Below, piece after piece: positions 29,044-61,780 of a DNA stretch of 64,000 nucleotides. The stretch is from assembly GCF_055900595.2 (NCBI RefSeq), contig NZ_CM148325.1. The stretch is one strand, 5' to 3'. Made by a program: the position numbers and the translations under genes. Under the pieces are notes generated by a model. The model had not been told where the DNA came from and did no database searches. It saw only the letters and a program-made list of their open reading frames with translations. Position 1 is the first letter of the stretch; every line of letters begins with the position of its first letter.

Positions 29044-32000
29044 ATGTCGGTATGTCTGAAACCAGGGAAAATCATTATGCTTCTGGGCATGTTGGCAGCT
29101 TTTATGCTGTCTGACTTTGCACGGGCAGGGGCGGAATGGCAGACATATCCTGATTCTACAGGCGAGTTTAACGGAACCGTTCCTTTTGCCGACAGCGCCA
29201 GCGTACCCGTCTATCAGGGCAGTGTTCAGCTTAATCCTGCTGAATCTCATGATGTCGGGTTTTCTGCTAAACCGAATGAATTTAGCGTTGACGATGACGC
29301 TGCTAACCTGATTGTCGCTAATCCTCAGGACAATGAAGGCGACCAGTTTTCCACACCACCTGCGCTGCGCTGGGAAAATCAAACACCCCCTACCGTCAGC
29401 CTGGTGTGGGCCGATGCCGCCACGCCCGATGTGCCCCTTAACCCACAACCTATTGCTAACCGTAGCTTTTGCGCTCAGGGGCTGGCCGGACGCTCGCTGG
29501 TGGCCTGGCCGCAGATTGATGCGCAGCAAACCCTCCCACTGCTCTACCTGTTGACCTCGACCGGCTATCCCTATGCGGGGACGGTGGCGCTGGTGGACCA
29601 GAAAGTGACCCTGAACATCGCGCCCGCGCAGGGCGATTTAATCTCGGTGAGCGCCAGCGGTTATAACGAAACGATCGCGGCGGCAAAAACCACCGTTGGC
29701 GACACCATCACGCTCACCGTCACCACTAAAGATTGTCAGGGCAACGTCGCGGGTAATATTCCGTTTATTATCAAACGTAAAGATGCTGAAAATCGCCAGG
29801 GGGCAGTGAATAATAGTGCGCCAGTGGTACTGGATAGCACCGAGTTAACGACGACGGCTACCGAATACCATGGCACCTCTGATGCCAACGGCACGGCCAC
29901 CATCACGGTGAGCCAACCGAACGGCCCTGGCGTCAAAACGCCACTGGTGGTCAGCATTTCCGGCATTGCGCAAACCAGCGAAACCGCGGTGATTTTTACG
30001 GTGCTCACCAGCCCGGACGCGGCGCAGGCTACGATGTGGGGCCATATGGCGGAAACGGTAGAAGCGCACGGTTACACCTTCAGTCGACCAAAGCTGGCGG
30101 CAGAAGTCAGCAATGAAAGCGCCACGGTCGTCGATCACAACGAAACCTGGTCCACCTTCACCTGGAGCGGCGCAGATAACCACTGCACCGTGCTGCCCGG
30201 CATGCGCCACTTCGGCGCGCTGGCGACCGTTATCCCCACATCGGTGCAGACAGTCCTTGGCTGGCCGATGCAGGGGGATTATTACTGGTCATCGCTGGCG
30301 GGCACCACCGGGCAGCACCATGCGGCGGATGTCTCTAACCGTGGTGAAACGCAAAAGCCGGATAGCACCCCGTTTCTTGTAAGCTGCGTGGATAAACCCG
30401 CGCCTGATGTCGAGCCGAAAATCGTCCTTACGCCCGAAAACTATGATGATACGGCACAGGCGATGAAATCGCAGGTGGGCGAAGACGCCACGATGCGTCT
30501 GACGATCACCGACAATAAAAATAACGATCAACCACTGGCGTATTACTACTTCTCGCTGCATCTGGATGACGGCGTTAACCGCAAAAATCAAACCGATTCC
30601 GCCTGGGAAGCCCATCCGGTGCAGATTACTGGTGGTTCGAATTTGCAACAGGTTGATGCTCACACCTATGAAGGCATGACCGATGTCAACGGTCAGGCTT
30701 CGCTAACCCTGAGTCAGCCCGACGGCGCAGGCGTGAAAACCCATATCACGGCGAAAATGCGCAGCAATTTTACGGCTACAGATGCCAAAGACGTGATTTT
30801 TACTGTGATCACCAGCCCGGACAGCGACAAGGCGCGGATGTGGGGCCATATGCGCGGCATTGTTGTATCTGGCAGTCTGTTCAAACGCCCAGTGCTGGCG
30901 GATGAAACTGAGCATGAACTGGGATCGGTGCGGGAAAATAACGAAGACTGGGCGCTGTTCGATCAAGACACCAGTATGCAGGCTGAATGCGGCGTCGGCC
31001 ATACGCCAAGTCAGAGTGGGCTGGAAAGCCTTTTTTCAGCCCATCCCGGTAACGCGATTGGCACTGAGTATGGCTGGCCCACCGCACAACAGAACTACCT
31101 AAGCGCGGTGGAGCAAGCCACGCATTCATCGGTGAATTTGGCGAACGGAAACGTCGACAGCTACCCCGGCTTTAAGCGAAATTACCTCTCCTGTTCGGGC
31201 AATGAGATGGTCGCGAAGGTTGAAGTGAGCACCGATCACGATGTCACCCCTGGCACCAAAGCGCAGGCCAAAGTGGGAGACACCGTCGTGATGACCGTGC
31301 GTACGGTTAACGCGCTCAATAATACCCCCGTTCCCTTTACTGCCTTCACCATCACTAAAGGCATGGGGTATAACCGAGCGGGGCTGGTGAGCGGGTTTGA
31401 TGACCCGAGCAGCGGCGCAATCTCGATGAATGGCACGCAATACGGCACATCTCAGCCGTCGATGGTCTACACAGGTACGACAGATGCACAAGGCGTGGCA
31501 ACGGTCGAAATAGAGCAACCCCAGGGGGTGGGGTTAAGAACCGTGCTGAGCATTACGCCGGTCAATTCCCATCTACCAAATGCCATTAATTACAATGTTA
31601 TTTTTACCACCCCAACCAGCCCGGATGTTAGTGGGGCGCAGATGTGGGGCCATATGGATGAAACGATTACCGTTGATTCATTAACCTTTACCCGGCCTAA
31701 GCTGGCAGCAGAAATCACCAGTCCGGATGGCACATTAACGGAAAAAAACGAAGTCTGGGCGCGCGTTAGCCAGGCCAGTACGGCCATTACCAGTAAAGGC
31801 GGTTGCGGAACCAATATGCTGCCGCGCCGCTCCCAGCTCAGTGCGCTCTATGACGCTAATAACGGTAATGCGGTGCAAGCCACACACGGCTGGCCGACGC
31901 AGCGTCAGCCCTACTGGAGCAGTTCCCCCGCGGATTTAACGCCGCACAATTACACCATTGCCCTGGATAACGGCGCACAGGCCATCGGCGGCGATACGCC

Positions 32001-35000
32001 GGTTTACGTCAGTTGCCTGACGACGGCGAACAAACCTGCCAGCAGCATTACGCTGGATGTGGTTGATAACGCACAGTGGGCTGCCGGAAATAACGCGGCG
32101 AAGCTGAAAAAAGGCGAAACGCTACAGGTTAAGGTAACGGTAAAAGATGCGCAGGGTAATCCGCTCACGGATATGCCATTTAAACTGAGTCGCGGAGACG
32201 GTTATACCCGCACGGGCGAAAAACATATTGCCGGTAGTGGCGATGCGCTGGTGGCACCGGTGGTGATTAACAGTGGGCTGGCGGATGAAACGACGTTGAA
32301 CGACACCGCGGGATTTTATACTGCCATGACCGGCAGCGACGGCAGCAAAATCCTCAATATTACCCGCCCGGATACTCACGGTACCAAAACGGCGCTGACG
32401 GCGACGTTGTATTCCGATCCAACAAAAAAAGACAGCCTGGATACAATCTTTACTGTGGTCACCAGCCCGGATAGTAGCAAAGCGAAAATGTGGGGCCATA
32501 TGCCGGAAACCTTAACGGCGGCAGATGGTACCGTTTTTAAACGCCCATTGCTGATAAAGGAACTGTCGAGTCAGACCGGGCGAACAGCAATATTCGAAGA
32601 CAATGAAAACTGGGCGCTGTTTACTCAAACCCAGGCGAACTCAACCAGTAACGGCTGCGGCACTAGCTATGTTCCCACTCAGGCAGGGTTGTTGTCGTTG
32701 TTTGATAATCACGCTGGCAATACCATCAAAACCGTCCAGGGCTGGCCGGTAGTAACGCGTTATTTATCCAGCACGCCCGACAACACTGGCATGGAACAGC
32801 GTAACTACAAAGCGGTGGATCTCGGCAATGGCACCAGTGCCATGGTGTCAACGTCGACACTGGATCTACTGACCTGCCAAACCACGCCAGTCACCACGGT
32901 GAGCCAGATTCTGCTGGAAGCGGCAGATCCTGCGGCTCTGATTTATGTTGACGATACACTGAGTGTGGTTAAAGCCAAAAAAGGCGAAGAGTCGGTAGTG
33001 CGCGTCACCACGAAAGATGCGCAAGGTAACCCGGTTGGCAATGCGGCGTTTATTCTGAAACGTGCCACCAGCATAAACCGGAGGTATACATCAGCGACAG
33101 CGAGTGTAGGTGCGCTGACTGTAACCGATGCCTGGGGAAATACGCGGAGTAATTTTCAGGCAACAACTGAAATGATCTATGGCGTGACGGGGGCTGACGG
33201 GTCGACAACCTTTACGCTGAAACAGGATAACAGTACCGGGTTAAGAACCGATCTCACGGCATCACTGGATGGCGTCAGCAGCGTTCAGGCGACCCTCCCG
33301 ATGGTCTTTACCGTGGTAACCAGTCCAGATTCTCCTAAAGCGAATTTTTGGGGACACATGCCTGAAACGGTAACGGCCGCTGATGGCATGACGTATAAGC
33401 GACCATTACTGTTTAAAGAACTTACCAATAACTATGCACGCTATAGCACTTTTGAGAATGGTGAAGATTGGGCAAGATTCAGTGTGGTTCAGTCAAATAA
33501 CACCGATATGGATGGATGCGGTGCAGAGTATATGCCGACACTGGATGGCCTGCAGTCCTTGTACAGTGCCAATAGTGGTAATGCGATGAGTACAGTGCAG
33601 GGATGGCCGGTAGCTAATAGTTATCTCACCAATACACCGAGTGATACGCAACCCAGTAACCGTTATTACAATGTGGTGCAACTGAATTCCGGCGCGGTTT
33701 CTCAAATCGTGACCACCGTGCTGGCATTACAAACTTGTCGCACAACGCCTGCGGTTATTGCCAGCCAGGTGTCTCTGGAGCCTGCGGACGCCACGCAATT
33801 CGTTAAGGTTGACGATACTCTGAGCGCCATTAAGGTGAAAAAAGGCGATGAGGTTGTTATTCGCGTCACGACCAAAGATGCGCAAGGAAACCCGGTGGGT
33901 AATACGCCGTTTACACTGAAGCGTAGCAGTTCTTTCAATCGCCAGAATGCATTAGTGACGATGCAGACGGTTTCGGTGACACCCGCAGCGGCCAGTACAG
34001 TTGATACCAATGCATCGGCCACCGTGTATGGCGTGACCGGGCCAGACGGAACCACCACGATGACACTCCGACAGGATGCGTCTACTGGACTCAAAACCGA
34101 CTTTTATGCTCTGTTGAACGATACCGGCGTGTCGTCGAACACCTTGCCAGTGATCTTCACCGTCGTCACCAGCCCGGATACACCGCTGGCGGCCAACTGG
34201 GGGCATATGGCGGAAACCTTTACCAGCAGCAAGGGCGTCACCTTCAAACGGCCTTTCCTCAAAGCTGAACTTTCTGGTGGTACGGCGGTAACGACCAATA
34301 ATGAAGTCTGGTCGCGCCTGACAGCAACGGAGAAAACGGATGCCAGCAAGGCGGGTTGTGATGAGAGTTATCAACCGCTGATGACTGACATGCAGGGGTT
34401 GTATGCGGATTACCCTAACAACCAGTTGGGCACGGTGCTCGGCTTGCCGACTTCCGCCGGGTATATGTGGGCCTACGACATGATGACGGTTTCTGGCAGC
34501 AGCTGGAGCAACCAGGCATATTCGCTCGTTAATGGTCAGACAGTTCAGGCATCGTCCAGTTATACGGCGGTAGTGATGTGCCTGGTGGAACCGCATACCG
34601 TTCCGGCGATGATAGAGATCACTTCAACAGCACAGGATGCGGCAAAAACGGTCAGCAATGGTGGTCGACCGAGCGCCGTAGCGAAGAAAGGTGAGACGAT
34701 TCCGCTGACGGTGACCGTACGTGATAGCACCGGGAATCCGGTACCCTACGCCGACTTTACCCTCACGCGTGGAACGACGCTGGATCGCTCGAAAGCAACC
34801 GTTAACTCGAGTGCGGACGATCTTACCGTGAAGTCATTGATACCCGCGAACAGCGACGCTGGGCTGACGGCAAATGGGGCAAAAGTGCTCAGAACAACGG
34901 GCAGTGATGGCACTGCCACCTTTGAAGTGAGCCAGAATGCCACGACAGGTCTGGCGACACCGATAACCGTCACGCTGGCGCGCGATACAACCAAAACCGC

Positions 35001-37131
35001 CACGCTGGATGTTATCTACACGGTGATAACCAGCCCGGACTCACCGAGCGCGAAATTCTGGGGACACATGCCGGACACCTTTACCAGTTCGGCAGGCGTC
35101 ACCTTCAGACGACCGCTCCTGAAAGCCGAAGCGACTTCAGGGTCATCGATTAGCACTAACGGTAATGGTGAAGTGTGGTCGTATATGAGCAACGTTCAAA
35201 ATTTAACATCGACAGATTGTCCGCTGGAGAATCAACCGCGCAGTAATGAATTGTTGGATTTGTATAATGATCATCCCAACGGCGCGATAATGACTGACCT
35301 GGGGCTGCCGATATATGCAGGCAAGTGGTGGGCTTATGATATGGTCATGCCGGATTTATATACGTGGCAGTATCAGACTGTCAGCCTGAGCGCAGGAGAT
35401 ATCGCGAAGAGCTCGGCAAACAACGCGCTGATGCTTTGCCTGGCGAAGCCGCATCCGGCAGGCGTCAGCGTAATGTTGACGTCATCCGCAATGGATAACG
35501 CCAGAACCCTCAGTAATGGCGGGCGACCCAGCGCGTCAGTGAAAAAAGGTAACCCACTGCCAATTGTGGTGACGGTCAAAGATCGTGATGGCAACCCGCT
35601 GGCGGGAGAGGCCGTGACGCTCAGGCGTGGTTCAGCGATGAGTCGTTCAGGAGCAGGAGTGGGCACGCCGGCAAATGCAATGACGTTGACAGAATTGACA
35701 CCTGTGTCGGCGGAGTTTTCTCTGGCCGCACACGATACGCAATGGCAAGGTTTCACCGGTAGTGATGGTACGGCCACTTTCAATGTTGAACAGCCTGAGA
35801 CCATCGGCCTGGCTATCTCGTTCACCGCTATACTGGCGCGAGATGTCGCAACTACCAGCGTCATTGATGCGATCTTTACCGTCGTCACCAGCCCGGATTC
35901 CGCAATGGCGACCTACTGGGGCCATATGCCGGATACGGTAACGGCGGAAAACGGCGTGGTCTTTGAACGGCCTAAATTGTTGAAAGAGCTGCCGTCGAGC
36001 GCCGGAGTCAGTCAGGTGACGGATAACAATGAAGTGTGGCCGTTGTTTAAGGCAACGCAAAGGGAAGATAGCAGCCTCAGTCCTTGTGAAGCGGCACGTC
36101 GGCCATTGAGCGATGATTTATTATCGCTCTACGCGCGCTATCCGGGGAACACGCTGACGACTCAAATCGGCTGGTCTACGAAGTATGCATGGTGGGCACT
36201 GGATAACAAGCAGGGGAATGCCCTGGTTGTCAGTCTGAATAATGGTTTTGAGTCGTCGACGGCGAGTACGGGGTATCAGGGATGTCTGGTCAATCCCCGC
36301 GCGACCGTCTCCAGCGTCACGCTGACATCGACGGCGATAGATGCCACTACGCAGGCGGCGAAGGTAAAAAAAGGTGAAGCCGCGCCCGTCGTTGTTACCG
36401 TAAAAGACAGCGCCGGGAAGCCGGTACCTAATGTCGCTTTCACCTTAAAACGTGGTGATGCCGTGCCGCGTAACAGCGGGGCGACGTTGTATGGTGATGT
36501 TGCGGCGATGGATGATATGACGGTACAACCTGCCAGCGGGACGGTGGTAACGCTGGCTGACAGTGGGAATACGATCGACGGTGTGACAGGGGCGGACGGT
36601 ACGGCAAGTTTTGCCGTTCGTCAGGATAATACGCCAGGATATAAAACGCCGTTGACGGTGACGCTGACGGATAACGCCACAATAACGGCGACGCTGGATA
36701 CGATTTTCACCGTGCCGACCAGCCCGAATGTCGCCACGGCGTATTTCTGGGGGCATATGGCGGATACCGCCACCGTAAGTGGCAAGACGTTACATCGCCC
36801 GCTATTGAAATCAGAGTTGCCGTCAGGGGCTACAGCGGCAGTAGCGCCAACGGTGAATAATGAAATCTGGGCGCTGGCACATGTGATCGATGCTCAAAAA
36901 TGGGATATTGCAAAGCAGTGCGGTGACTTTAGTAGAGCACCGAGCTATACCGATTTACAGTCATTGCATAGCGGTTTTAGCGCGCTGGGATGGCCATCAT
37001 CGATAAGCTTCCCCTATTTCTCTACCGATCGGGCCGGTTCGTTCTATTGTGGTATGGATGAAGGGGCGGGGACACAAAACTGCGGTATTCAGGCATCCAG
37101 TACCGCAGGGTTTGCGACTTGTTTCCAGTAG
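29044..37131 (+). CDS. ratA: giant repetitive secreted/surface protein (RatA-like)
   Basis: 2695-aa ORF with N-terminal signal peptide; nine tandem ~270-aa units each carrying FTV(V/L)TSPD..(M/F)WGHM motifs. Confidence 0.8.
29650..37100 (+). repeat. nine in-frame tandem coding repeats (~0.81-0.86 kb period) within the ratA-like gene
   Basis: WGHM signature recurs near nt 30033, 30838, 31642, 32490, 33347, 34197, 35058, 35917 and 36757. Confidence 0.8.
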
Positions 37132-48580: not shown

Positions 48581-49153
48581 ATGAAGTTGAATAATCTGGT
48601 TGCTCTTTACAGGAACATGACAGAGCAAAAATTGGATAGGGTTAAATTCCCATACAGACACAATAATTTACATTTTGATGTATTTTTCTTTATTGATGGA
48701 AAACCGTTTGAGCTTCTTTTCGGAGCATTAGGCGCTAATCTTTGCTTTCGTCTAAAAGTCGAGAAGGGATTCGTCATAAATCCTAATCTGGGAAGTGAGA
48801 CTTATAAAGAATTATGCAAGGCGCTAGGTTTGAAATATGACCCTGCCAATCCATTTAGAACAAGTAAGTTTTTTGAAGATTTTGATGGGAAAATCCCTAC
48901 ATCGGTTACTGTTAAGAATAAGGCAAAATATACTGATATTGCTGTGCATGTCAGGGATGTTGAAGAAGCAGACAGAATATATTTCTGTGGATGGAAAAAC
49001 AACAATGAAGAAAAGAGTCATGTTACTGAAGATAATTTAAAGAAAACGAAAGAGTTTTTAGGGTATCAGGCTTTTCTTGTTTGTAAGGAAAAGAATATTA
49101 GCAGTAGATGGACTGATTTAGAAAATAAAGCAAAAGATTTTTATTTACCATAG
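48581..49153 (+). CDS. hypothetical protein (cargo gene 1, no recognisable domain)
   Basis: 190-aa ORF with strong SD GGAGG; A+T-rich, Lys/Asn-rich; first gene of compact operon. Confidence 0.6.
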   Translation: MKLNNLVALYRNMTEQKLDRVKFPYRHNNLHFDVFFFIDGKPFELLFGALGANLCFRLKVEKGFVINPNLGSETYKELCKALGLKYDPANPFRTSKFFEDFDGKIPTSVTVKNKAKYTDIAVHVRDVEEADRIYFCGWKNNNEEKSHVTEDNLKKTKEFLGYQAFLVCKEKNISSRWTDLENKAKDFYLP

Positions 49154-49167
49154 GATTGTGAGGTTAT

Positions 49168-50316
49168 ATGTCTGATATTTCATTAGGGTGCGTGGTTGTT
49201 CATAGGTTGATAAAAGAGCAACATAAAGATTTCGATCACTCAAAACCATATAGTCGCCGTGATACGGTTCTTGACCGAAATAATGAAATCGTAATTAAAC
49301 TAGTGTCCAGTATAGCCGCATTGTATGGTAAAAAATCTAATAGCTCGCATTATGGTATATTTAATTTAGATGAAACACGCAGGGGGCCTTTTCCAGCGGA
49401 ATTTGATAAATATCGGAATGATACATCCAAGAAGTTAGACGATGAATTGTTTATAGGATTATCAAAAAATGTTATGCATCAGTTATATATTGAGGCAAAG
49501 GATCGACCTGCTGCATCAGGAGGATTACTTCTTTTTGCTGATTATATCAGTAAATCCGTGCGTTACTTTCTTATTGCAATGATTAAGCAAAAGGAAGGTA
49601 TAGTTATTAGTGATAAATTAGAGCCAAAGGAGTTAGAGCATCTTGATCTGGCAAAACTAAACCAGGCGGCACGAATAAACTATGATTTGTATGATAAATA
49701 TATTTCCGCTGATGAGAATGAAAGACAGGATGTTAATTATTTAAGTTTTGTTAGTCCCAGTTCTAACCAGACAACTTCAGGGTATTTCATTACTGCCTTA
49801 GGTTGTGATAAAGGTAATACATCAACTAAAGCTACGAGTAATTTAATTAATGAATCTTTTAACTTCTTCAGAAATCATCAAGAATTAAAGGATAATGCCC
49901 GTAAATTTAAAAATGAAATTATTGAGTATTTATTCGATTGTTCTGAAAATAACATTTCAGCTAAGCTCTCTGTTGTTAGTGAGATGGCGGCGAAGCATAT
50001 GGTTAATTTAGAAGATGACATTAAAGATAAATTGTCAGAAGAATTATATGCTCATTTGAATAGTGAAAGTATTCGTGTGCCTGTGGAATTTAGGGTAAGC
50101 AAATCAGTAGTTAAGAAAAACAGAAATATTAAATATACAAGTGATAATGTTAATTTTGAGTTTAAATCTAGTTTACTAGGCAATACTCTTGATAATGAGA
50201 TATGCTATAATAAGAAAACTGGACATTTAACTTTTACTCGGATTACTCCTGAGAAAAAAAGTGAAATAGCTCAATTGCTTGATGAGTTAATAAAAGAAAG
50301 AAATAGCGAAAAATAA
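49168..50316 (+). CDS. NdpA/YejK-like nucleoid-associated protein homolog (cargo gene 2)
   Basis: 382-aa ORF, SD GTGAGG; collinear similarity to E. coli YejK recalled from memory (VVVHRLIKEQH vs IALHQLIKRDE; GGLLLFADY..VRYFLIAMI vs GGxVLFCHY..VEYLLVAVL). Confidence 0.55.
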   Translation: MSDISLGCVVVHRLIKEQHKDFDHSKPYSRRDTVLDRNNEIVIKLVSSIAALYGKKSNSSHYGIFNLDETRRGPFPAEFDKYRNDTSKKLDDELFIGLSKNVMHQLYIEAKDRPAASGGLLLFADYISKSVRYFLIAMIKQKEGIVISDKLEPKELEHLDLAKLNQAARINYDLYDKYISADENERQDVNYLSFVSPSSNQTTSGYFITALGCDKGNTSTKATSNLINESFNFFRNHQELKDNARKFKNEIIEYLFDCSENNISAKLSVVSEMAAKHMVNLEDDIKDKLSEELYAHLNSESIRVPVEFRVSKSVVKKNRNIKYTSDNVNFEFKSSLLGNTLDNEICYNKKTGHLTFTRITPEKKSEIAQLLDELIKERNSEK

Positions 50317-50318
50317 GG

Positions 50319-50957
50319 TTGCTTAATATGTCATGTTTTGAAACGGTTGTTGAGCTTTTCAGATATGTAGGGCGTCCTAAATTTGATGCTATTAATAATC
50401 GTTTTTCAGCAACTATTTCTTATGATGCTCATATATATGAACTCTTAGTTTCTTTGCAACCTCATACAGCGTGGGGAGAAATTGAAGAGATTGTCATTGA
50501 TGATGTGGATATAGATGTTGATGATAGCCTTCCCGCTAAAGGAACATCAATAACACTGACAATCTCTATATCAACTGGAGCTAGTGAGTCATTTTTTATC
50601 GATATTAAAGATCTAATTCAAAAGTCTCCGATGTTAAATAGAGGTATTTTAAGAAAGTCTTTTTACTTGGTTGAGGAAGATTTTTATTTTAATGAAGGAA
50701 TGGTTGAGGGATTAGCAAAAATACCAGAACTATCTGTTTTAAAGAATCTTTGTGATTTTATTTTATGTCTATCAAAAGTTGCACACTACAGCAATAGTAA
50801 AAGTGATGATGTATGCCATAAGTTAGTTTTCTTGAAAAATACTAATGCTAAGTCATTACCTTTAATTATTGAAACTAATGTTGATTATTCACTTCTTTTA
50901 ACAGGTATTAAGGATTTAAAAATCATCGAATCTTTTTCTGATGAAAAAAAGCTATAA
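50319..50957 (+). CDS. hypothetical protein (cargo gene 3)
   Basis: 212-aa ORF beginning 2 bp after the preceding stop; acidic, no recognisable domain. Confidence 0.55.
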   Translation: MLNMSCFETVVELFRYVGRPKFDAINNRFSATISYDAHIYELLVSLQPHTAWGEIEEIVIDDVDIDVDDSLPAKGTSITLTISISTGASESFFIDIKDLIQKSPMLNRGILRKSFYLVEEDFYFNEGMVEGLAKIPELSVLKNLCDFILCLSKVAHYSNSKSDDVCHKLVFLKNTNAKSLPLIIETNVDYSLLLTGIKDLKIIESFSDEKKL

Positions 50958-51001
50958 CGGATGATAATTATTTTGAGCGAAAAGGGATTTTCATTAATAC
51001 G

Positions 51002-51583
51002 GTGGTCGATTTTCTTGAATCAATCGATGTAAAGAAACAGTTTCATTTTTTATTCTGTGAGTGGGATGAATTTCTAAAACTATACCATAATAACCTCGGT
51101 GTATATCTTAGTGGTTTTTCATTTCATAAAGTAAGAAAGGAAGTGGCAGAGGCAGAAGCTAATTTAGCTGAGCGTTTTTCAAAAATAATGTCAGACATGA
51201 TAGCTAAGCTTTTAGGTATTCCTGTTTCTTTGGTTGCTACTTTTGGCATGATAAAATTAAATACCCTGCCGGAAATGTTAGTGGTTTTTTTAGGTGTATT
51301 GCTCACGTCGATAATTATGTTTTTTATTGTAAGAAGTCAATACACACAGTTTAGGATGATTTGTGATGCTAAAGATATTATATTTTCCCCATTAGTGAAA
51401 AAATCTGTAGGTTATACAGAAGATTTGAAAAAATTAGTATGCAATGCAAAGGATAATTTAGACAAAAATCAGGTCATGTTAAATCGTTACCTTCTTTTCT
51501 TTCAATGCTTATGCTGGATTCCGACAGCCTTAGGTGGTGGAATGATCTTAATGGCTATTATGGTTCATTTAGGATTACTATAA
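51002..51583 (+). CDS. predicted membrane protein (cargo gene 4)
   Basis: 193-aa ORF with apparent GTG start; hydrophobic segments (IPVSLVATFGMIKL.., MLVVFLGVLLTSIIMFFIV, ..CWIPTALGGGMILMAIMVHLGLL); 3' end overlaps convergent gene D by 6 bp; start codon uncertain. Confidence 0.45.
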   Translation: MVDFLESIDVKKQFHFLFCEWDEFLKLYHNNLGVYLSGFSFHKVRKEVAEAEANLAERFSKIMSDMIAKLLGIPVSLVATFGMIKLNTLPEMLVVFLGVLLTSIIMFFIVRSQYTQFRMICDAKDIIFSPLVKKSVGYTEDLKKLVCNAKDNLDKNQVMLNRYLLFFQCLCWIPTALGGGMILMAIMVHLGLL

Positions 51584-52678
51584 ACTTAATTCCATTTCTA
51601 ATGCGGTGACATAACCAGTACCGCCATCCAACGTATGCACGCACCGCGTAATCACCCACGCGGTGCCATCAATTTCCGCCTTAAACCCCTTCACCTGCAG
51701 CGGTAATTCCGGGAACAAATCGGGCCGTCCACGCGCAAGATTCAGGCTGAACGTTGCCGCGCCGCGCTGTAGCTGCTCCCACGCGCTTTTTGCCGCTCTG
51801 TAGGCGTTATTTTTGTTGGCATAGGTGTGGCGCAGCACCTTGATATTTCCCTCTTCGCCAACCATCACGTTATCAGCATTGAATGAGGCGTCTGACGGCG
51901 GAGATTCTGTTGGTTGCGTTTGTGGACGGTTTTTCCGTGTCTTGCGCTTCATGTCAGTGGACTGCTTTTTTGCCTGCCGTGTATCCAGCCAGTAGGCCGT
52001 CACACCGGTATACGCCTCCCTGTCCGCGATGCTGAACCGGTGGCTGTCGCCGTCCTCGCGGGTAATGGTTGCGACCGGCAGCGGTTTGCCGCTGGCACTT
52101 TTACCGGAACCTGTCGGCATTAGCAGCAGAGCATCATTTTTCACGCAGGCGATAGCGCCGTGCAGTTGCGCCAGCCGGGTCAGGAAGGAGGCATCGGATT
52201 CGTTAGTCTGGTCAACGTGCTCAATGGCGATCCCAGCCAGCTCGCCGCTGACGGTTGATTCCAGCTTATGACGCGCCGCCACGGTTTGCACAATCGCGCC
52301 CAGCGTCGCATCATGGTAGCTCTGTTCCCGTTTAACGTTCAGCGAATCGCGGAAATCGGCGCTGCGGGCGCGGAGGCTGAGTACGTCCGGTGCGCCGCTG
52401 TGCTCCAGTTCGTCCACTGTGAAGACATTCTGGTGCATCACGCCGTCACCCTTCCAGCCTAGAGAAACCGTTAGCTTTTCGCCCTTTGCCGGAAACGCCA
52501 GCAGGCCGTCGCTGTCGTCCAGTTCGAGCTGCAGTTCGTCGGCCTCAAAGCCCCGGTTGTCGGTGATACGCAGGCTGATTAAGCGGTTGTCCAGATTCCG
52601 CGTAATGTCCTTACCGTTCAGCACCACGCTGTACTCCGGCTGCGGCTGGGCGTTTAAGAGTGCGTTTAACATCGTCAT
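51578..52678 (-). CDS. P2 gpD-like tail protein (late control D)
   Basis: 366-aa ORF, MTMLNALLNAQPQPEYSVVLNGKDITRNLDNRLISLRITDN.. typical of gpD; position after U. Confidence 0.85.
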   Translation of the reverse strand: MTMLNALLNAQPQPEYSVVLNGKDITRNLDNRLISLRITDNRGFEADELQLELDDSDGLLAFPAKGEKLTVSLGWKGDGVMHQNVFTVDELEHSGAPDVLSLRARSADFRDSLNVKREQSYHDATLGAIVQTVAARHKLESTVSGELAGIAIEHVDQTNESDASFLTRLAQLHGAIACVKNDALLLMPTGSGKSASGKPLPVATITREDGDSHRFSIADREAYTGVTAYWLDTRQAKKQSTDMKRKTRKNRPQTQPTESPPSDASFNADNVMVGEEGNIKVLRHTYANKNNAYRAAKSAWEQLQRGAATFSLNLARGRPDLFPELPLQVKGFKAEIDGTAWVITRCVHTLDGGTGYVTALEMELSL

Positions 52679-56920: not shown

Positions 56921-58099
56921 TTACACAGTGGTGGCGATGGATTCAGCCAGATTGACCAGATAGCGGTCAGTGATGCGCTGGCGGAACATCAGGTTTTCCA
57001 GCGGCGGCACCGGGGTGTAGTCGTAGTCGATATACGCTTTACCCGCTTTCAGGATGTCCGGCGTGTTGGCGGCGGGATCGAACCATGCGGAGCCGTCGAC
57101 GATGTAGCCGTTGCCTTTCAGTTCGCGGAATTTGGCGTTCACGCCTTCGATAATGTCGCGGAACAGAGAAGCGTGTTGCGGTTTATCTATCGCCCAGAAG
57201 TGGGCGTCGGCGATGGTATCCGCCAGCACCTGCGCGGTGCGGGTGTAGTTCTCAAAGGCAAACAGCGGATCGGTGCTGCAGGTGCGCGATCCCCAGAAGC
57301 GATAGCCGGCGTTGCAAATCAGCGTGGTGACGTCGTGGCTGTTGAGGTAATCCGAATCGGTGGCGGTGGACTGCAGATCCCAGAATACGCTGCGGGAAAT
57401 GCCGGTCACGCCGTTGACGTCAACGTTGGACAGCGTTTTATGCCAGCCGGTTTCTTCATCAATTTTTGCACGCAGGCCCACGGCGCGGGCGGTGGCGTAT
57501 AGGGTACGTTCGGCGGCAGCCTGTGTATCAAAGCCGACAAAATCCGGCCAGATAATCATCGCCTCTCGCGCACCTAGCTGATCGCGATACAGCACCGCCT
57601 CTTCTTTGGTCTGCGCGCCGAACGCCGACAGATAGCTGAAGGCGCGAAGCTGTTGTGAAATGCTGACCAGTTCGGTGGCGATGGGCAGAGAATCCAGCCC
57701 TGGTACCGCCAGAATGCGCGGTTTTATTTTCAGTTTGGTTTGCGAGTCCAGTAGCGCCTTCATGCCGGTGTATTTCCCGGCTGGCGTGCTGCCGCCGATG
57801 ATATTGGCGGTGGTTTCGGCGGCGGAGTCACCTTCGGCTACGCGCACGGCGACCACCACCGGCTGCGTCTGGTCGGCGATGGCATCCAGAGAGTGTGCCA
57901 GCGTACCGCTATCACCGGCTTTACCCAGCGCAGATCGCACGTCGGTTAACAGTACTGGGGTATCAAGGGGAAAGGTTTTTTCATCGGCATCTGAACCGGT
58001 ACAGACAATGCCGATCACGGCAGTGGAAATGGTACGGATCGGGCGCACGCCTTCATTGATTTCAATAACGCGCGCGCCGTGGTGGTAGTCGGTTGCCAT
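56921..58099 (-). CDS. tail sheath protein (gpFI-like)
   Basis: ORF 56921..58186; probable start MATDYHHGARVIEINEG at 58099; C-terminal ..IDYDYTPVPPLENL.. sheath signature. Confidence 0.88.
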   Translation of the reverse strand: MATDYHHGARVIEINEGVRPIRTISTAVIGIVCTGSDADEKTFPLDTPVLLTDVRSALGKAGDSGTLAHSLDAIADQTQPVVVAVRVAEGDSAAETTANIIGGSTPAGKYTGMKALLDSQTKLKIKPRILAVPGLDSLPIATELVSISQQLRAFSYLSAFGAQTKEEAVLYRDQLGAREAMIIWPDFVGFDTQAAAERTLYATARAVGLRAKIDEETGWHKTLSNVDVNGVTGISRSVFWDLQSTATDSDYLNSHDVTTLICNAGYRFWGSRTCSTDPLFAFENYTRTAQVLADTIADAHFWAIDKPQHASLFRDIIEGVNAKFRELKGNGYIVDGSAWFDPAANTPDILKAGKAYIDYDYTPVPPLENLMFRQRITDRYLVNLAESIATTV

Positions 58100-58204
58100 G
58101 AGGCGAGCCTCCATCAGGTCAATAAATGACGATGGTGGCACAGAGCGAAAAGGGCGGTGACGGCTTCCACTTGTAACCACTGGCACTACAAGCAGAAGCG
58201 GTTT

Positions 58205-58963
58205 TTAATTCAGGATAATCAGTTCTGATGTGGTGCTGGCTGGCTTTCCACCTACGGTATAGCGAATCCCTACCGTTGAGAATGTCAGGCCGTGGAAGAT
58301 ATCGCGCATTTCCGGGATGTCGTTAACCGAGATAATCATCCGGCCCTGCATGGTGCGCGCCAGCTCTGCCATACGCTGGTACTGCTCAAGGCCAAATGGT
58401 ACGCCGTAGCCTTCGGTTTTCCAGTATGGTGGGTCGCAGTAGAACAGGGTATGCGGGCGGTCATAGCGGCGAATACAGTCGGCCCAGTCCAGATTTTCAA
58501 TGCAGACGCGCGCCAGCCGCAGATGGGCGGCGGATAAATCCTCTTCCATACGCAGCAGGTTCAGGCGCGGCGGTGAGGTGGTGGCGGTACCGAACGTGCG
58601 ACTTTCCACTTTGCCGCCGAATGCCAGCTTTTGCAGATAGTAGAAGCGCGCCGCGCGCTGGATATCGGTCAGCGTTTCTTCCGGGGTGATCTGGAGCCAG
58701 CGGTACATTTCGCGGCTGACCAGCGACCATTTAAACTGGCGGACAAACTCTTCTAAATGGTGCTGAAGTACGCGGTAGAGGTTGGTAACGTCACCGTTGA
58801 TATCGTTCAGCACCTCGGCCTGTGCGGGCTGTTTCATAAAGAACAACGCTGCCGCCCCGCAGAACGGTTCAACGTAGCAGCGGTGTTTGGGAAACAGTGG
58901 CAGAATGTGTTTTGCCAGCCTGCGCTTACCGCCGATCCACGGAATAACGGGTAACGTATTCAA
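58205..58963 (-). CDS. Dam-family DNA N6-adenine methyltransferase (paralog 2), moron between G and FI
   Basis: 252-aa ORF with IGGK..RCYVEPFCGAAA and DPPY motifs; start overlaps upstream stop (ATGA). Confidence 0.8.
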   Translation of the reverse strand: MNTLPVIPWIGGKRRLAKHILPLFPKHRCYVEPFCGAAALFFMKQPAQAEVLNDINGDVTNLYRVLQHHLEEFVRQFKWSLVSREMYRWLQITPEETLTDIQRAARFYYLQKLAFGGKVESRTFGTATTSPPRLNLLRMEEDLSAAHLRLARVCIENLDWADCIRRYDRPHTLFYCDPPYWKTEGYGVPFGLEQYQRMAELARTMQGRMIISVNDIPEMRDIFHGLTFSTVGIRYTVGGKPASTTSELIILN

Positions 58964-59418
58964 ATTGTCAATTTTCCAGACCGACTGCTGACCAACGCAT
59001 ACAGCAGATTAGGAGACCAGCGCCAACTATCGCGCAGGTGCAGAAATTCGGCGCAGAACTCGCTGCAAAACAGGCGTTCCTGTTTACCCTGACTGAGTAA
59101 CACAAAACCCATGGCGCCCAGCCAGTCGTAACCTTTATCGTCGTGCTGACGAAAAAAGGTTTCCAGTGCCAGCGGATCGGCGTTGATCGGGAGTAAATCC
59201 CATTTCTCAATCGGCAGCGGCATTCGTTTGCTGCGCACGCCTTTATCCCGTACCGATGATGAGTAACAGATAAACAGGCCATCCGGCAGGCGTTCGACCA
59301 GTTCGCAGTGAGAGTAAGGGCCGCGCGTGACCTGTCGCGTCAACCAGTCGGAGAGCCGGGCAAGGCTGAAAAAGCGTTCAGCCCGGCCACGGTAGAACGC
59401 CATGTAAACCTGACTCAT
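58960..59418 (-). CDS. hypothetical protein (moron gene at Z/fun position)
   Basis: ORF 58960..59427; start likely MSQVYMAF at 59418 giving an ATGA overlap with the G stop; Cys/His-containing, no recognised domain. Confidence 0.55.
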   Translation of the reverse strand: MSQVYMAFYRGRAERFFSLARLSDWLTRQVTRGPYSHCELVERLPDGLFICYSSSVRDKGVRSKRMPLPIEKWDLLPINADPLALETFFRQHDDKGYDWLGAMGFVLLSQGKQERLFCSEFCAEFLHLRDSWRWSPNLLYALVSSRSGKLTI

Positions 59419-60122
59419 GGTTGCCATCCTGATGAGTAGTCGTAACCCATAACCGCCTGCACCTCCGTCAACGCTTCAACGGCGGCAATATGCTGCTGGG
59501 CAGCGGCGAACAGGCGCATATCGTGCGCCATTGTTTCGGTTTCAAACCGGGCGGCGATCTCGTTGGTTAGTTCAATCAGGTTGTGATTTTTGGTCTGCCA
59601 CATTAAGCCTGCCGGTATTTGTTTAGCCACGCCCATTTTGGTGAGCGAGAGCTGCTGGATGCGGCTGTTAGCGTCGCTGTGGAAATGGTGATTATCGATG
59701 ATGATGTAGTCAGCGGTGATTCGATCGCGATACTGCTTTATTTCTGCCACCTTTGCCTGTCGGGCTTTTTCGATATCGGGCTGCCAGCGTTTGCCGTCCC
59801 AACGGACAAAGGCGTTATCGGGCTTCAGCAGAGTGACGTTATCCGGCAATGGCCCCAGATGATGAAGCTGTACCTCACTGCCCGCATCGGTATCAAACGC
59901 GGTTTTACCGCGATGATCTTCTACCGCAAGCCATGTTTCTCCGTTGAATGTCAGGGCAAAGCCGCTCTGGCATTCGGGCGGTTCGATAGTGGTACAGCAT
60001 TCCGGTAAGCCGGTGTTGGGGGCGATATAGGCGTCGCTGACGCCGATAAATTCCTGAGTATCTGCCGCGTAGTTAAAGATGCGCAGGGTTTGCGGTTCGT
60101 CGGAAAATGCGAATGTGCTCAT
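59415..60122 (-). CDS. tail fiber assembly protein (gpG-like)
   Basis: 235-aa ORF immediately downstream of tail fiber H with ATGA overlap. Confidence 0.75.
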
Positions 60123-61780
60123 GCCAGCCTCACGATATAGTTGAAAGCGATATTTTTAACGGTGTTTTCGGTGTTCCCGGCGGCATTCACCGTAATAGTG
60201 TGGCTGTGGGAACCCAAGGCGATAGCGTGGTTATGCGCGCCGATAGTCAGCGAATGGGTATGAGCGCCGATGGCTACTGTGTGAGTATGGACACCGTCTG
60301 TACTGGTTCTGAATTTGTAGTTATCCCAGTCTGTGTCTGCAGACCCCTGATTATTACGGGTACTGTCGAAGTAACCGTGACGTCCACCGCTGGCTTCACC
60401 CCATCCGCTGTCGTGGTTGTGAGCACCGGCTGACGCTGTTGATTTTGTCCCGTAGTCAAACGCGCTGGTATTTTTAGTACCCAAATCGGTGGAACTGGCA
60501 GTTTTAGTGCCTAAATCTGTGTTAGTGGCGCTGGCTGTGTGACTATGAGATTTAACGCCATCCTGTTCCTGAGACAGTATCGAGCGTCCGCTGGCGGGTT
60601 TCCCCTTGATTGTCCAGCCGCGCATATCCGGGATTACCCCAGAGGGGTAAGCGATTGCCAGTTTAGGGTAGGCGGTTTTATTGAAGGACTGACCGACCAT
60701 CAGGGCGTAGCCGCTGGGGATTGCATCGGATGACCACGGTATCGGCGTGCCGACCGGACAGGTTTCCGCCGCCAGCGCTTTGTCTACTGCCGCTTTCACC
60801 GCCTTGGGCGTGGCGGCCAGTGTTTCGCTGGTGCTGTCGATGGCGCTACTAAGCTGGACAATCCCTTTACGCGCCGTGGTGGCATCCTGCGCGGTATATT
60901 TGCCATTAGCCATATCGTAGGCCGCTTTCACCGCCTTGGGCGTGGCGGCCAGTGTTTCGCTGGTGCTGTCGATGGCGCTACTAAGCTGGACAATCCCTTT
61001 ACGCGCCGTGGTGGCATCCTGAGCGGTATATTTGCCATTAGCCATATCGTAGGCCGCTTTCACCGCCTTGGGCGTGGCGGCCAGCGTTTCGCTGATACTG
61101 TCGATGGAGCTACTAAGCTGGACAATCCCTTTACGTGAGGTGGTGGCATCCAGTGCGGTATATTTTCCATTAGCCAGATCGTAGGCTGCTTTCACTGCTT
61201 TGGGCGTGGCGGCCAGTGTTTCGCTGATGCTGTTGGTCGCACTGCTTAATTGAGTAAAACCTTTGGCAGTTAACGTGGCGTCAGGATGGTTACGGGACTG
61301 CACGTGGCACGTCAGGCTTTCATCCACATACTGTCTTGTTGCCAGCACCACGGCAGGGTCGATTTTCAGCTCCACGTTTTCCGTATGGGAGACAATCAGC
61401 ACCATGCGGATAATCTGCGTGCGGCCCGAACCTTCGATTAACTGCGGCTTGTAGGTTGGCGGGCAGTTGCCGACGGCAATCAGCCGGTCGTGCTCGTCGT
61501 ACAGGCCAATTTCTCTGATCCACCATCCGCCTACATCCTCCGGTAGTACCTGTTCGGCAATAATCTGGTTGGGGTTGTTAGGGTCAATACTGAGCGTATT
61601 CAGCGGCGCACGTCGGCGTTCGTTGATTAACCGGGTTTGGCCAGTCTCCGGTGTTGGCAGGTTACCGTTTCCGTCGCCCACGGCCATTTGCGTCAGATGA
61701 AGAGGTGAACCCTGTGCGGTGGCGGTCGCCAGCGCGGATTCGCCGGTAGTGGTTAATAGCGTGAAATAGGTAGCGCTCAT
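60119..61780 (-). CDS. tail fiber protein (gpH-like)
   Basis: 553-aa ORF; conserved P2 H-type N-terminus (..[24 protein letters not shown]..) and repetitive, variable C-terminal half. Confidence 0.88.
60790..61250 (-). repeat. about 3.5 tandem copies of a 132-bp (44-aa) coding repeat within tail fiber gene H
   Basis: Near-identical units begin at 60790, 60922 and 61054 with a diverged partial unit from 61186; encode ..[44 protein letters not shown].. Confidence 0.85.

Follow-up and report, generated by a model that had tools for sequence, protein, structure and literature searches.

In phage P2, the junction between genes G and FI carries fun(Z), a lysogenic-conversion gene encoding 528 aa, which lies on the opposite strand after the terminator of the V operon. 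This junction is a variable locus in P2-like phages. In other phages, the slot downstream of the tail-fibre chaperone gene holds other cargo, such as a macro-domain protein (Gifsy-1, SEN4 and SEN5), a hexapeptide acetyltransferase (after STM4198) or an invertase cassette (E. coli ET734). The published work on P2 hotspots (PMC9122126) covers the old/tin locus, not the G/FI junction. In Mu, a gene for late modification of DNA adenines occupies the com-mom slot, at the far end of the tail-fibre operon, and the replacement of mom by methylases (Hin1523, Hia5, Nma1821) has been published (PMC3299994).

The chaperones gp27 of phage V22 and gp9 of phage A5, both infecting Alteromonas, carry a DUF4376 domain and have been described as "transient chaperone caps"; no enzyme partner is described for them in that work (PMC10579305). 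Permuted NlpC/P60 enzymes (PPNE) of the YaeF/YiiX kind (PDB 2if6 and 3kw0; Pfam Peptidase_C92) form a class with a Cys/His/polar triad plus a Tyr and a hydrophobic S1 pocket, with a fatty acid bound in YiiX (PMC3142127).

Anatomy of the G/FI junction

We analysed a stretch of 64,000 nucleotides of E. coli DNA (RefSeq assembly GCF_055900595.2, contig NZ_CM148325.1), hereafter called the window, in which a P2-like prophage carries two extra genes at this junction. The host was identified from the housekeeping genes that flank the prophage, whose identity to those of E. coli is 100%. The prophage is a rare one, the pair of genes being present in 3 of 5,426 complete E. coli genomes, and an exact 22-mer spanning the junction had no match in the GTDB representative genomes. 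A sister prophage, 97% identical, is found in E. coli L725. When the region was compared with phage genomes by megablast, the sheath gene alone matched, at ∼73% identity, meaning that the phages sequenced include no close relative.

Read along the minus strand, the region comprises H, G, the gene of a 152-aa protein, a methyltransferase gene, a gap of 105 nt, and FI. The tail-fibre gene H (60119..61780) was recognised from its translation, which shares 46-62% identity with the fibres encoded upstream of homologous modules; within it, a 132-nt unit is repeated in tandem 3.4 times. G (59415..60122) encodes a tail-fibre assembly protein, or chaperone, of 235 aa, Tfa-like in its N-terminal part and with a DUF4376 domain in its C-terminal part (aa 120-224). 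The Pfam match to DUF4376 has an E value of 1.5e-12 and that to Caudo_TAP is weak, phrog_1807, phrog_105 and phrog_2837 are matched as well, and the copy of the sister prophage is entered in RefSeq as "DUF4376 domain-containing protein". FI (56921..58099, starting with an ATG at 58099) opens the next late operon and was assigned from its ∼73% DNA identity to the FI gene of RSA1 and from its RefSeq label, "phage tail sheath protein".

The preliminary description of this DNA had reported two additional genes oriented like the late operon, and both are indeed there on the minus strand, at 58960..59418 for the 152-aa protein and 58205..58963 for the methyltransferase. Profile matches to phrog_1128 (E 1.3e-52) and phrog_56 (E 2.3e-97) respectively indicate that neither is a chance ORF. 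The span proposed for the pair, 58205-59427, is right at its lower end. Its upper end corresponds to an upstream in-frame ATG at 59427, which would give a protein of 155 aa, whereas the start at 59418, giving 152 aa, is the one used by the homologues and by RefSeq in the sister prophage. This start also produces a 4-nt ATGA overlap with the stop codon of G, as had been described. The same ATGA arrangement had been proposed for the second junction, and there it does not apply: the sequence is ACAATTTGAATACG, with a TTG start and a TTGA overlap, again of 4 nt. In the sister prophage the junction reads ACAATATGAATACG and is an ATGA.

No sigma-70-like promoter was found by scanning positions 57900-60300, and the two terminator-like matches of the scan are both located outside the 152-aa gene, the methyltransferase gene and the gap that separates the latter from FI. 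Translation of the two genes is coupled in a chain to that of the late V operon. Contrary to fun(Z) of P2, they run in the direction of the late operon, each begins within the end of the preceding late gene, and neither has its own promoter. The slot first likened to that of Z/fun is the same in position only, as Z/fun is antisense, has its own regulation and is homologous to neither protein (BLASTP E values with Fun(Z) of 6.3 and 32).

In the gap, a perfect dyad (CTTGTA-N11-TACAAG, that is TGT-N13-ACA) is found on the minus strand at 58170..58192, ∼80 nt upstream of the ATG of FI. It is the sole TGT-N12/13-ACA motif between the stop codon of the 152-aa gene and FI, and the annotated activator site of the P2 pF promoter lies at an equivalent distance from FI. 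In three P2-like loci lacking the methylase, a motif of the same form directly follows the homologue of the 152-aa gene. The dyad is thus a putative Ogr-type activator site for the late promoter of the F operon. Base composition and GATC counts showed nothing anomalous, and were uninformative on acquisition history or specificity.

The predicted methyltransferase

The 252-aa product of the second gene matches PF02086 (MethyltransfD12) over residues 9-225, with an E value of 7.1e-29, which places it in the D12 class, or Dam family, of N6-adenine DNA methyltransferases. Its motifs YCDPPYW (DPPY, motif IV), VEPFCGAAALF (SAM-binding motif I, in which the last Gly is an Ala) and IPWIGGK (WxGGK) align to E. 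coli Dam structures. The best PADLOC model is of a general kind (MTase_II PDLC03253, E 1.6e-114), and the L725 copy is 99% identical. Judged by curated cut-offs, it would be a relative of Dam rather than a Dam equivalog: the score against the dam subfamily TIGR00571 is 105.6 bits for a cut-off of 114.85, and against the equivalog NF008152 it is 62.3 bits for a cut-off of 441. Moreover, the region aligned to the recognition hairpin of E. coli Dam (residues ∼118-138) is not conserved. GATC is consequently no more than a candidate specificity for this protein, whose host is a Dam-positive E. coli.

The identification of an orphan Dam-family methyltransferase made in the preliminary description is thus borne out, since no cognate restriction endonuclease adjoins the gene, the neighbours being the permuted NlpC/P60-fold protein discussed below and the sheath gene. 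With its catalytic motifs intact, it appears to be an ordinary phage orphan adenine methylase. Its relatives are the Dam proteins of phages B3 (Pseudomonas) and VP882 (Vibrio), gp27 of phiE125 (Burkholderia) and the methylases of the BcepMu-like phages PhiKM and KP12, which are 64-73% identical to it over its full length, have in common with it PF02086 and the DPPY, SAM-binding and WxGGK motifs, and likewise have no partner endonuclease. They differ in context: in those phages the methylase is solitary and the 152-aa gene is absent, whereas here the gene is joined by the TTGA overlap to a P2-type V operon, between a gene of the fibre module and FI, with neither a Com regulator nor a promoter of its own.

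Another similar slot is com-mom, the resemblance being in late timing, in the modification of DNA adenine and in the distal position within the tail-fibre operon; the differences are the absence of Com here and the P2-like nature of the phage. Among the Mu-like relatives of our locus, the order is fibre, chaperone, 152-aa homologue, com and methylase, and Com-like zinc-finger ORFs were detected in 13 of the 15 relatives that were checked and have a gap of at least 280 nt between the 152-aa homologue and the methylase. The window has no such gap, as the two genes overlap by 4 nt, and no Com gene precedes the methyltransferase. Because a Com gene intervenes in the Mu-like relatives, the methylase there occupies the mom slot, and constitutes a separate, independently controlled unit, in agreement with the published replacement of mom by methylases (PMC3299994). 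The methylase of the window belongs to another family than SuMu gp53, with which it has no BLAST match and which, from its annotation, would be of the Hin1523/Hia5 type.

An anti-restriction or epigenetic role, suggested at the outset, is the standard and most likely reading for such a protein. The methylase would be encoded last on the shared late transcript, with its translation coupled to that of the gene before it, and would modify replicated phage DNA ahead of packaging, so that restriction in the next host is blunted. It would then be the functional equivalent of the com-mom or methylase slot at the right end of Mu-like phages. As such it is routine, one more late orphan adenine methylase probably helping a temperate phage to escape restriction.

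Fold of the 152-aa protein and its linkage to the chaperone

The 152-aa protein had been left as a product without known function, for which profile and structure searches were proposed. These led to phrog_1128 and to a papain-like NlpC/P60 fold, nearest to the solved PPNE structures. The top structural matches are YiiX and BcPPNE, which have a lipid pocket, and not deubiquitinases. Across 44 sequences, His37 (in SHCE) and Cys118 (in FCSE) never vary, and they line up with His49 and Cys154 of 3kw0; the catalytic His therefore precedes the catalytic Cys, which is the circularly permuted order. Two further positions are invariant, Ser53, aligned to Glu64 of 3kw0, and Tyr97, 21 residues ahead of the Cys.

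Searches with the protein as single query gave no match in Pfam, NCBIfam or PADLOC, nor in the sequences of the PDB; only the family profile reached 3kw0, with an E value of 0.0015. When the 44 homologues were scanned one by one against Pfam, none matched Peptidase_C92 (PF05708) at E≤0.001, and the best value, 4.3e-3, was the sole weak match of that scan. A BFVD fold search returned uncharacterised phage proteins only. We conclude that the protein is a divergent branch of the YaeF/YiiX-like permuted NlpC/P60 enzymes, recognised mainly by structure. It differs from the described members by its smaller size, by a sequence too divergent for Pfam, and by its presence in phages and its genetic tie to a tail-fibre chaperone, a setting undescribed for that family. 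Direct reading of the sequence reveals neither a signal peptide nor a membrane segment, and we take the enzyme to be cytoplasmic.

The family is large, with 3,097 cluster representatives at E≤1e-3 and 1,360 clusters at 50% identity and E≤1e-10, and it extends over prophages of Enterobacterales, Pasteurellaceae, Neisseriaceae, Moraxella and Pseudomonas. Its longer members are chimeras or deletion products, as in P0253, where the N-terminus of the 152-aa protein is joined to FI. The label carried by phrog_1128, "enoyl-CoA hydratase/carnithine racemase-like", is a mislabel for a family of permuted papain-like Cys-His enzymes. No functional study of the family was found in the literature on STM4198, HI1521, DUF4376 and YiiX.

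We then consider its association with the chaperone, which holds in both directions. Among 80 IMG/VR loci picked with the 152-aa protein, 57 had a homologue of G (BLASTP E≤1e-3) directly upstream, matched mostly through the C-terminal ∼120 aa of G. Conversely, 66 of 80 loci picked with the C-terminal domain of the chaperone had a member of the 152-aa family directly downstream; these loci came from a search with an alignment of chaperone C-domains, as a search with G alone returned the same contig only. Six of the seven phage records with the C-domain also have the 152-aa family. Pairwise identity of the 152-aa proteins follows that of the C-domain (Spearman 0.73) and not that of the N-domain (0.29), and in close pairs the median identities are 74% for the C-domain and 23% for the N-domain. 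The adjacency is kept while the downstream neighbour changes (FI, com plus methylase, holin or host genes), it is found in myoviruses and siphoviruses of several bacterial families, and the 4-nt start/stop overlap is conserved among homologous loci.

Altogether, these comparisons show a tight and ancient co-inheritance of the 152-aa protein with the C-terminal domain of the chaperone. Simple linkage might account for it, the gene lying in the conserved flank of a fibre cassette that can be swapped. No natural fusion of the two proteins was seen among 231 ORFs matching the 152-aa family and 179 matching the chaperone C-domain. In an AF2 model of the C-domain linked to the 152-aa protein, both domains were well predicted (pLDDT ∼95) with no confident interface (pTM 0.54); this test, made on a linker fusion with a 29-row paired alignment, is crude, and we count it as weak negative evidence. 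In jumbo phage RP12, the gene of the 152-aa family stands alone. As P2 and many phages with DUF4376 chaperones do without it, the gene is not essential for fibre assembly in general. G shares its C-terminal domain, and its position after a fibre gene, with V22 gp27 and A5 gp9, the difference being the gene of a Cys-His enzyme that comes after the chaperone gene in the window, as it does in hundreds of loci.

Roles of the two genes

The comparison of the junction across P2-like phages, also proposed at the start, showed that the locus is variable and that there are other P2-like phages in which the 152-aa gene directly precedes FI. The preliminary description had opposed its two-gene module to the case of a structural or assembly protein conserved in all P2-like phages. 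What was found comes close to that case, as the 152-aa gene is a conserved terminal gene of the fibre/chaperone module in phages of many types, P2 itself being without it. The two genes are separable passengers rather than one module or a defence system. Our preferred explanation, held with moderate confidence, is that the late V operon, for baseplate and fibre, carries at its distal end a fibre-linked Cys-His enzyme and a late orphan methylase, whose adjacency comes from this shared terminal position and not from mutual need.

Under this explanation of two passengers, the 152-aa protein would be a soluble, YiiX-like permuted NlpC/P60 enzyme, made late and translationally coupled to a DUF4376-type chaperone. 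It may act by hydrolysis or transfer of an acyl or peptide group, its presumed target being associated with the fibre/chaperone module, as in processing or removing the chaperone "cap" or in modifying the fibre; its solved relatives have a hydrophobic S1 pocket with a fatty acid bound (PMC3142127). Of more use is the finding that a large family labelled as enoyl-CoA hydratase consists of permuted papain-like Cys-His enzymes genetically locked to one class of tail-fibre chaperone, and its annotation should be corrected whatever the substrate turns out to be.

A bolder version, which we regard as rather unlikely, makes the protein an unrecognised enzymatic step of tail-fibre biogenesis, a YiiX-like thiol hydrolase or acyltransferase working with DUF4376-type chaperones. 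The chaperone "cap" would be removed or processed, or the fibre tip or the chaperone would be acylated or de-acylated. Well over a thousand phage lineages would share such a step, P2-like, Mu-like and siphoviruses included. A process thought to involve chaperones only would thereby gain an enzyme, which would matter for the engineering of fibres, tailocins and host range.

Alternatively, the enzyme may be a moron directed at the host and foreign to fibre assembly, an amidase or acyltransferase of lipids or lipoproteins with an effect on the envelope or a part in lysis. The unrelated enzymes held by the same slot in other phages, the lipid links of such enzymes, the AF2 model and the solitary gene of RP12 are all consistent with this, and the effector would then be widespread and expressed late, acting on host lipids or proteins. 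We nevertheless find it doubtful, given the two-way association with a single chaperone C-domain across phage types and bacterial families, and the lack of a visible signal peptide or membrane segment. Its corollary, that the gene follows the chaperone only because the spot tolerates cargo, seems to us equally doubtful, as the start/stop overlap is kept and no promoter was found.

That the two genes form a functional pair is improbable. In such a pair, the methylase would be the target of the permuted-papain enzyme and be modified, activated or regulated by it, or both would make a hypermodified adenine, or, as first suggested, they would constitute a two-component defence or exclusion system. 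The genes are translationally coupled in the window. Within 1.5 kb on the downstream side of the 152-aa family gene, an adenine methylase is present at 18 of the 51 loci from IMG/VR and at 31 of the 71 from named genomes, the methylases belonging to two different families. The fold family takes in acyltransferases, and Mom of Mu is an acyl-type adenine modifier. Yet more than half of the loci of the 152-aa family have no methylase, other P2-like phages run straight to FI, the closest methylase homologues are solitary elsewhere in phage genomes, and Com separates the two genes in Mu-like phages. The two-gene module of the preliminary description is thus not upheld. Defence is unlikely: the locus includes no nuclease or effector, a PADLOC search gave 0 matches for the 152-aa protein, and the top matches of the methylase there are generic type II and orphan methylases, with PD-Lambda-5_B at only 1.2e-15. 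Expression from a late operon, with no sigma-70-like promoter, fits a prophage-borne defence poorly.

Finally, a counter-defence peptidase, that is a PPPDE-like deconjugase stripping ubiquitin-like tags from tail proteins or an enzyme cleaving a host immune protein, is very improbable, as the best structural matches are YiiX and BcPPNE instead of deubiquitinases, and the family is linked to a chaperone domain and not to a particular host.

Against the explanation of two separate passengers, the proportion of 152-aa family loci followed by a methylase, 35-44%, is higher than a purely independent view would naively predict.

Gene order between G and FI

The late genes of this P2-like prophage lie on the minus strand, in the transcription order H (tail fibre, 60119-61780), G (tail-fibre assembly, 59415-60122), an ORF of 152 aa (58960-59418), a methyltransferase ORF of 252 aa (58205-58963) and, after a gap of 105 nt, FI, the sheath gene, whose ATG is at 58099. 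The two extra genes that the preliminary description placed at the G/FI junction are present, on the minus strand and co-oriented with the late genes. The 152-aa protein matched phrog_1128 (E = 1.3e-52) and the methyltransferase phrog_56 (E = 2.3e-97); both ORFs are genuine genes. An upper limit of 59427 had been proposed for the pair because an in-frame ATG is found there, 9 bases upstream of the 152-aa start, the latter being the start used by homologues and by RefSeq. ATGA overlaps had been reported at both junctions. The G stop and the 152-aa start do overlap in this way, but the next junction is ACAATTTGAATACG in the window, with a TTG start in a TTGA stop overlap. The corresponding junction in the sister prophage of E. 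coli L725, which is 97% identical, is ATGA, and the methyltransferase starts there with ATG (L252, the sister locus, 9861-9863) instead of TTG (window 58961-58963). The methyltransferase start codon in the window therefore carries a single A-to-T change, which probably lowers translation of the methylase. Inside H, a 132-nt tandem repeat (window 60789-61233, 3.4 copies, 94% matching) encodes a repeated 44-aa fibre segment; an IMG/VR sister contig aligned with H in two blocks only, and the repeat region may differ.

The slot had also been equated with that of Z/fun in P2. The junction is the same, but its content is not: in P2, the V-operon terminator is followed by fun(Z) on the opposite strand and then by the pF activator site, whereas both extra genes of the window are on the sense strand and chained by overlaps. 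Neither protein resembled Fun(Z) upon sequence comparison. A sequence scan of 57900-60300 returned no sigma-70-like promoter. About 80 nt before the FI start, in the methyltransferase-FI gap, lies the perfect dyad CTTGTA-N11-TACAAG (TGT-N13-ACA); in P2, the pF activator site is at this distance from FI. No other motif of this type occurs from the 152-aa stop to FI, and in three P2-like loci lacking a methylase one comes directly after the 152-aa homologue. The overlaps, the lack of a promoter and the position of the dyad past the methylase suggest that the two genes are the last ones of the V late transcript, with pF lying after the methylase. The G-FI junction is variable elsewhere; in another E. 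coli prophage, it carries an alternative fibre cassette together with an invertase.

The 152-aa family and the tail-fibre chaperone

Sequence searches with the 152-aa protein gave no match in Pfam, NCBIfam, PADLOC or the PDB. The family profile, however, matched 3kw0, a solved permuted NlpC/P60 structure (E = 0.0015), SHCE aligning with the catalytic His and FCSE with the catalytic Cys, in the permuted His-then-Cys order common to these enzymes. The defining features of these enzymes, according to Xu et al. (PMC3142127), are a hydrophobic S1 pocket and a Cys/His/polar triad complemented by a Tyr; the authors saw a fatty acid bound in YiiX and proposed lipid-amide amidase or acyl-transfer chemistry. 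In an alignment of 44 homologues, the invariant residues were Y9, D24, R28, T31, S36-H37-C38-E39, C51, S53, S55, R57-D58, G60-V61-R62, K64, W73, Y97-D98, G101, F117-C118-S119-E120 and P136; of these, S53 lines up with the third residue of the triad. Members are nearly all single-domain proteins of 135-170 aa, and clustering at 50% identity gives the family 3,097 representatives at E<=1e-3 (1,360 at 1e-10). Pfam Peptidase_C92 matched none of the 44 homologues at E<=0.001, which places the protein outside that family by sequence; some AFDB relatives bear the Peptidase_C92 label, and most are called "enoyl-CoA hydratase". We saw no signal peptide or membrane segment on reading the 152-aa sequence.

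In annotated phages, a tail-fibre assembly or "tail" gene lies directly 5′ of the 152-aa homologue, often with a 4-nt overlap. Such pairs are Salmonella STM4199/STM4198, Haemophilus SuMu gp50/gp51 and Pasteurella Pm86 ORF69/70, and further examples were found in Moraxella Mcat2, Pseudomonas pAN and Acidovorax AP1. Among 80 IMG/VR loci chosen by the 152-aa protein, 57 had a G homologue ending at the 152-aa start (BLASTP E<=1e-3). Conversely, among 80 IMG/VR loci chosen with an alignment of chaperone C-domains, a 152-aa family ORF was immediately downstream in 66; a tblastn search with the C-domain of G returned 7 phage records, 6 of which also carry the family. The conserved stretch of the upstream G homologues is the C-terminal ~120 residues. 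This part of G is Pfam DUF4376 (aa 120-224, E = 1.5e-12), present in Alteromonas phage tail-fibre chaperones called "transient caps" (PMC10579305).

Pairwise identities were computed over 70 non-identical loci. Identity of the 152-aa protein followed that of the chaperone C-domain (Spearman 0.73) but not that of the N-domain (0.29), and where two 152-aa proteins shared 55% identity or more, the C-domains had a median identity of 74% and the N-domains one of 23%. It follows that the chaperone exchanges its fibre-binding half freely and keeps its DUF4376 half together with the 152-aa gene. Tfa proteins reportedly have a modular architecture (North et al. 2019), consistent with such swapping.

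We lean towards a reading of the locus as a late orphan adenine methylase and a separate late YiiX-like thiol enzyme. The former would shield progeny DNA, and the latter would belong to the tail-fibre/chaperone module. On physical contact between chaperone and enzyme, two weak negatives were obtained: an AF2 model of the chaperone C-domain joined by a linker to the 152-aa protein (29-row paired alignment) gave pLDDT ~95 per domain, pTM 0.54 and no confident interface, and none of 231 ORFs matching the family was a natural fusion with the chaperone. A Salmonella protein of 328 aa in AFDB (A0A3S4HXI3, 'Phage tail fiber assembly') shows 51% identity to the 152-aa model over 120 aligned columns; it may represent a fusion of chaperone and enzyme, or an artefact produced by a frameshift at the ATGA overlap.

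A less likely alternative is that the 152-aa protein has nothing to do with fibres and acts instead on lipids or proteins of the host; its frequent company with the DUF4376 half speaks against this.

Other enzymes and cassettes occupy the slot just 3′ of the tail-fibre assembly gene in other phages: a macro-domain protein in Gifsy-1 (NC_010392), SEN5 (NC_028701) and SEN4 (NC_029015), a hexapeptide-repeat acetyltransferase after STM4198 (Salmonella locus L001, 5772-6248), and, in the E. coli ET734 P2-like prophage (L253, 5856-8172), an invertase plus alternative fibre/chaperone genes.

The methyltransferase and its proximity to the 152-aa gene

The proposal of an orphan Dam-family methyltransferase held. 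The protein matched Pfam PF02086 (7e-29), its WxGGK, EPFCGAA and DPPY align with the corresponding motifs in E. coli Dam structures, and it is an orphan since no endonuclease is adjacent; it belongs to the D12 class. It scored 105.6 bits against the NCBI curated Dam model, under the 114.85 cut-off, and the segment aligned with the Dam DNA-recognition hairpin is not conserved, so that GATC specificity should not be assumed. GC content and GATC counts showed nothing unusual. Its relatives, 64-73% identical, are the methylases of PhiKM and KP12 (BcepMu-like), Vibrio phage VP882, Pseudomonas phage B3, where it is annotated with Com, and Burkholderia phiE125/phi1026b. An orphan adenine methylase protecting progeny DNA is an already known kind of gene.

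In 18 of 51 IMG/VR loci and 31 of 71 named-genome loci, the 1.5 kb downstream of the 152-aa family include a methylase; most of these are Mu-like prophages from Pasteurellaceae and Neisseriaceae. Two methylase families are involved, the Dam-like one of the window and that of SuMu gp53, judged from its annotation to be of Hin1523/Hia5 type. Of the 15 loci checked in which the gap measures 280 nt or more, 13 had a Com-like zinc-finger ORF in it. These Mu-like relatives run fibre, chaperone, 152-aa gene, com and methylase, as at the Mu right end, with the methylase in the mom slot, an arrangement already described (Drozdz et al., PMC3299994). Both genes lie distally in the fibre operon, hence their frequent adjacency; direct coupling is peculiar to the lineage of the window. 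In other P2-like phages, the 152-aa gene is found directly before FI (5 loci of the named-genome set and 9 of the IMG/VR set, the latter including the sister prophage, whose methylase lies in between), and PhiKM and KP12 have the methylase at another genomic position and lack the 152-aa gene. This argues against the single module or two-component defence system first suggested, and we regard a functional pair as improbable despite the adjacency. Least credible is a counter-defence peptidase.

Lineage and other cargo

Several complete E. coli chromosomes match the flanking der-hisS-bamB-ispG-rodZ region with 100% identity. Of 5,426 complete E. coli genomes, only 3 have the two-gene segment (95.5-96.8% identity), and one IMG/VR contig is ~97% identical over it, with the same layout. 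[quoted passage not shown] A 307-aa metagenomic protein (P0253) joins residues 1-81 of a near-identical 152-aa protein in frame to internal FI. It looks like a deletion of the rest of the 152-aa gene, the methylase and the FI start, in a decaying copy of this lineage.

At the D/ogr end of the prophage, four co-oriented ORFs (48581-51583, plus strand) adjoin gene D (51578-52678, minus strand). The 382-aa product, a YejK-like nucleoid-associated protein, matched NCBIfam DS1_1_antiphage below threshold, and the 193-aa product matched DS1_2_antiphage, likewise below threshold; PADLOC returned no match for the four. Annotations in the sister prophage are HTH, nucleoid-associated protein and GTP pyrophosphokinase. 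As possible defence cargo of the prophage, these ORFs are a stronger candidate than the 152-aa/methylase pair. Outside the prophage, two chromosomal ORFs on the plus strand (8822-13783 and 29044-37131) encode 1,653 and 2,695 aa. Past the right end of the window, another cargo slot of the L725 sister prophage, between baseplate gene V and a virion morphogenesis gene, holds an 'abortive phage resistance protein' gene (L252, 15248-16153).
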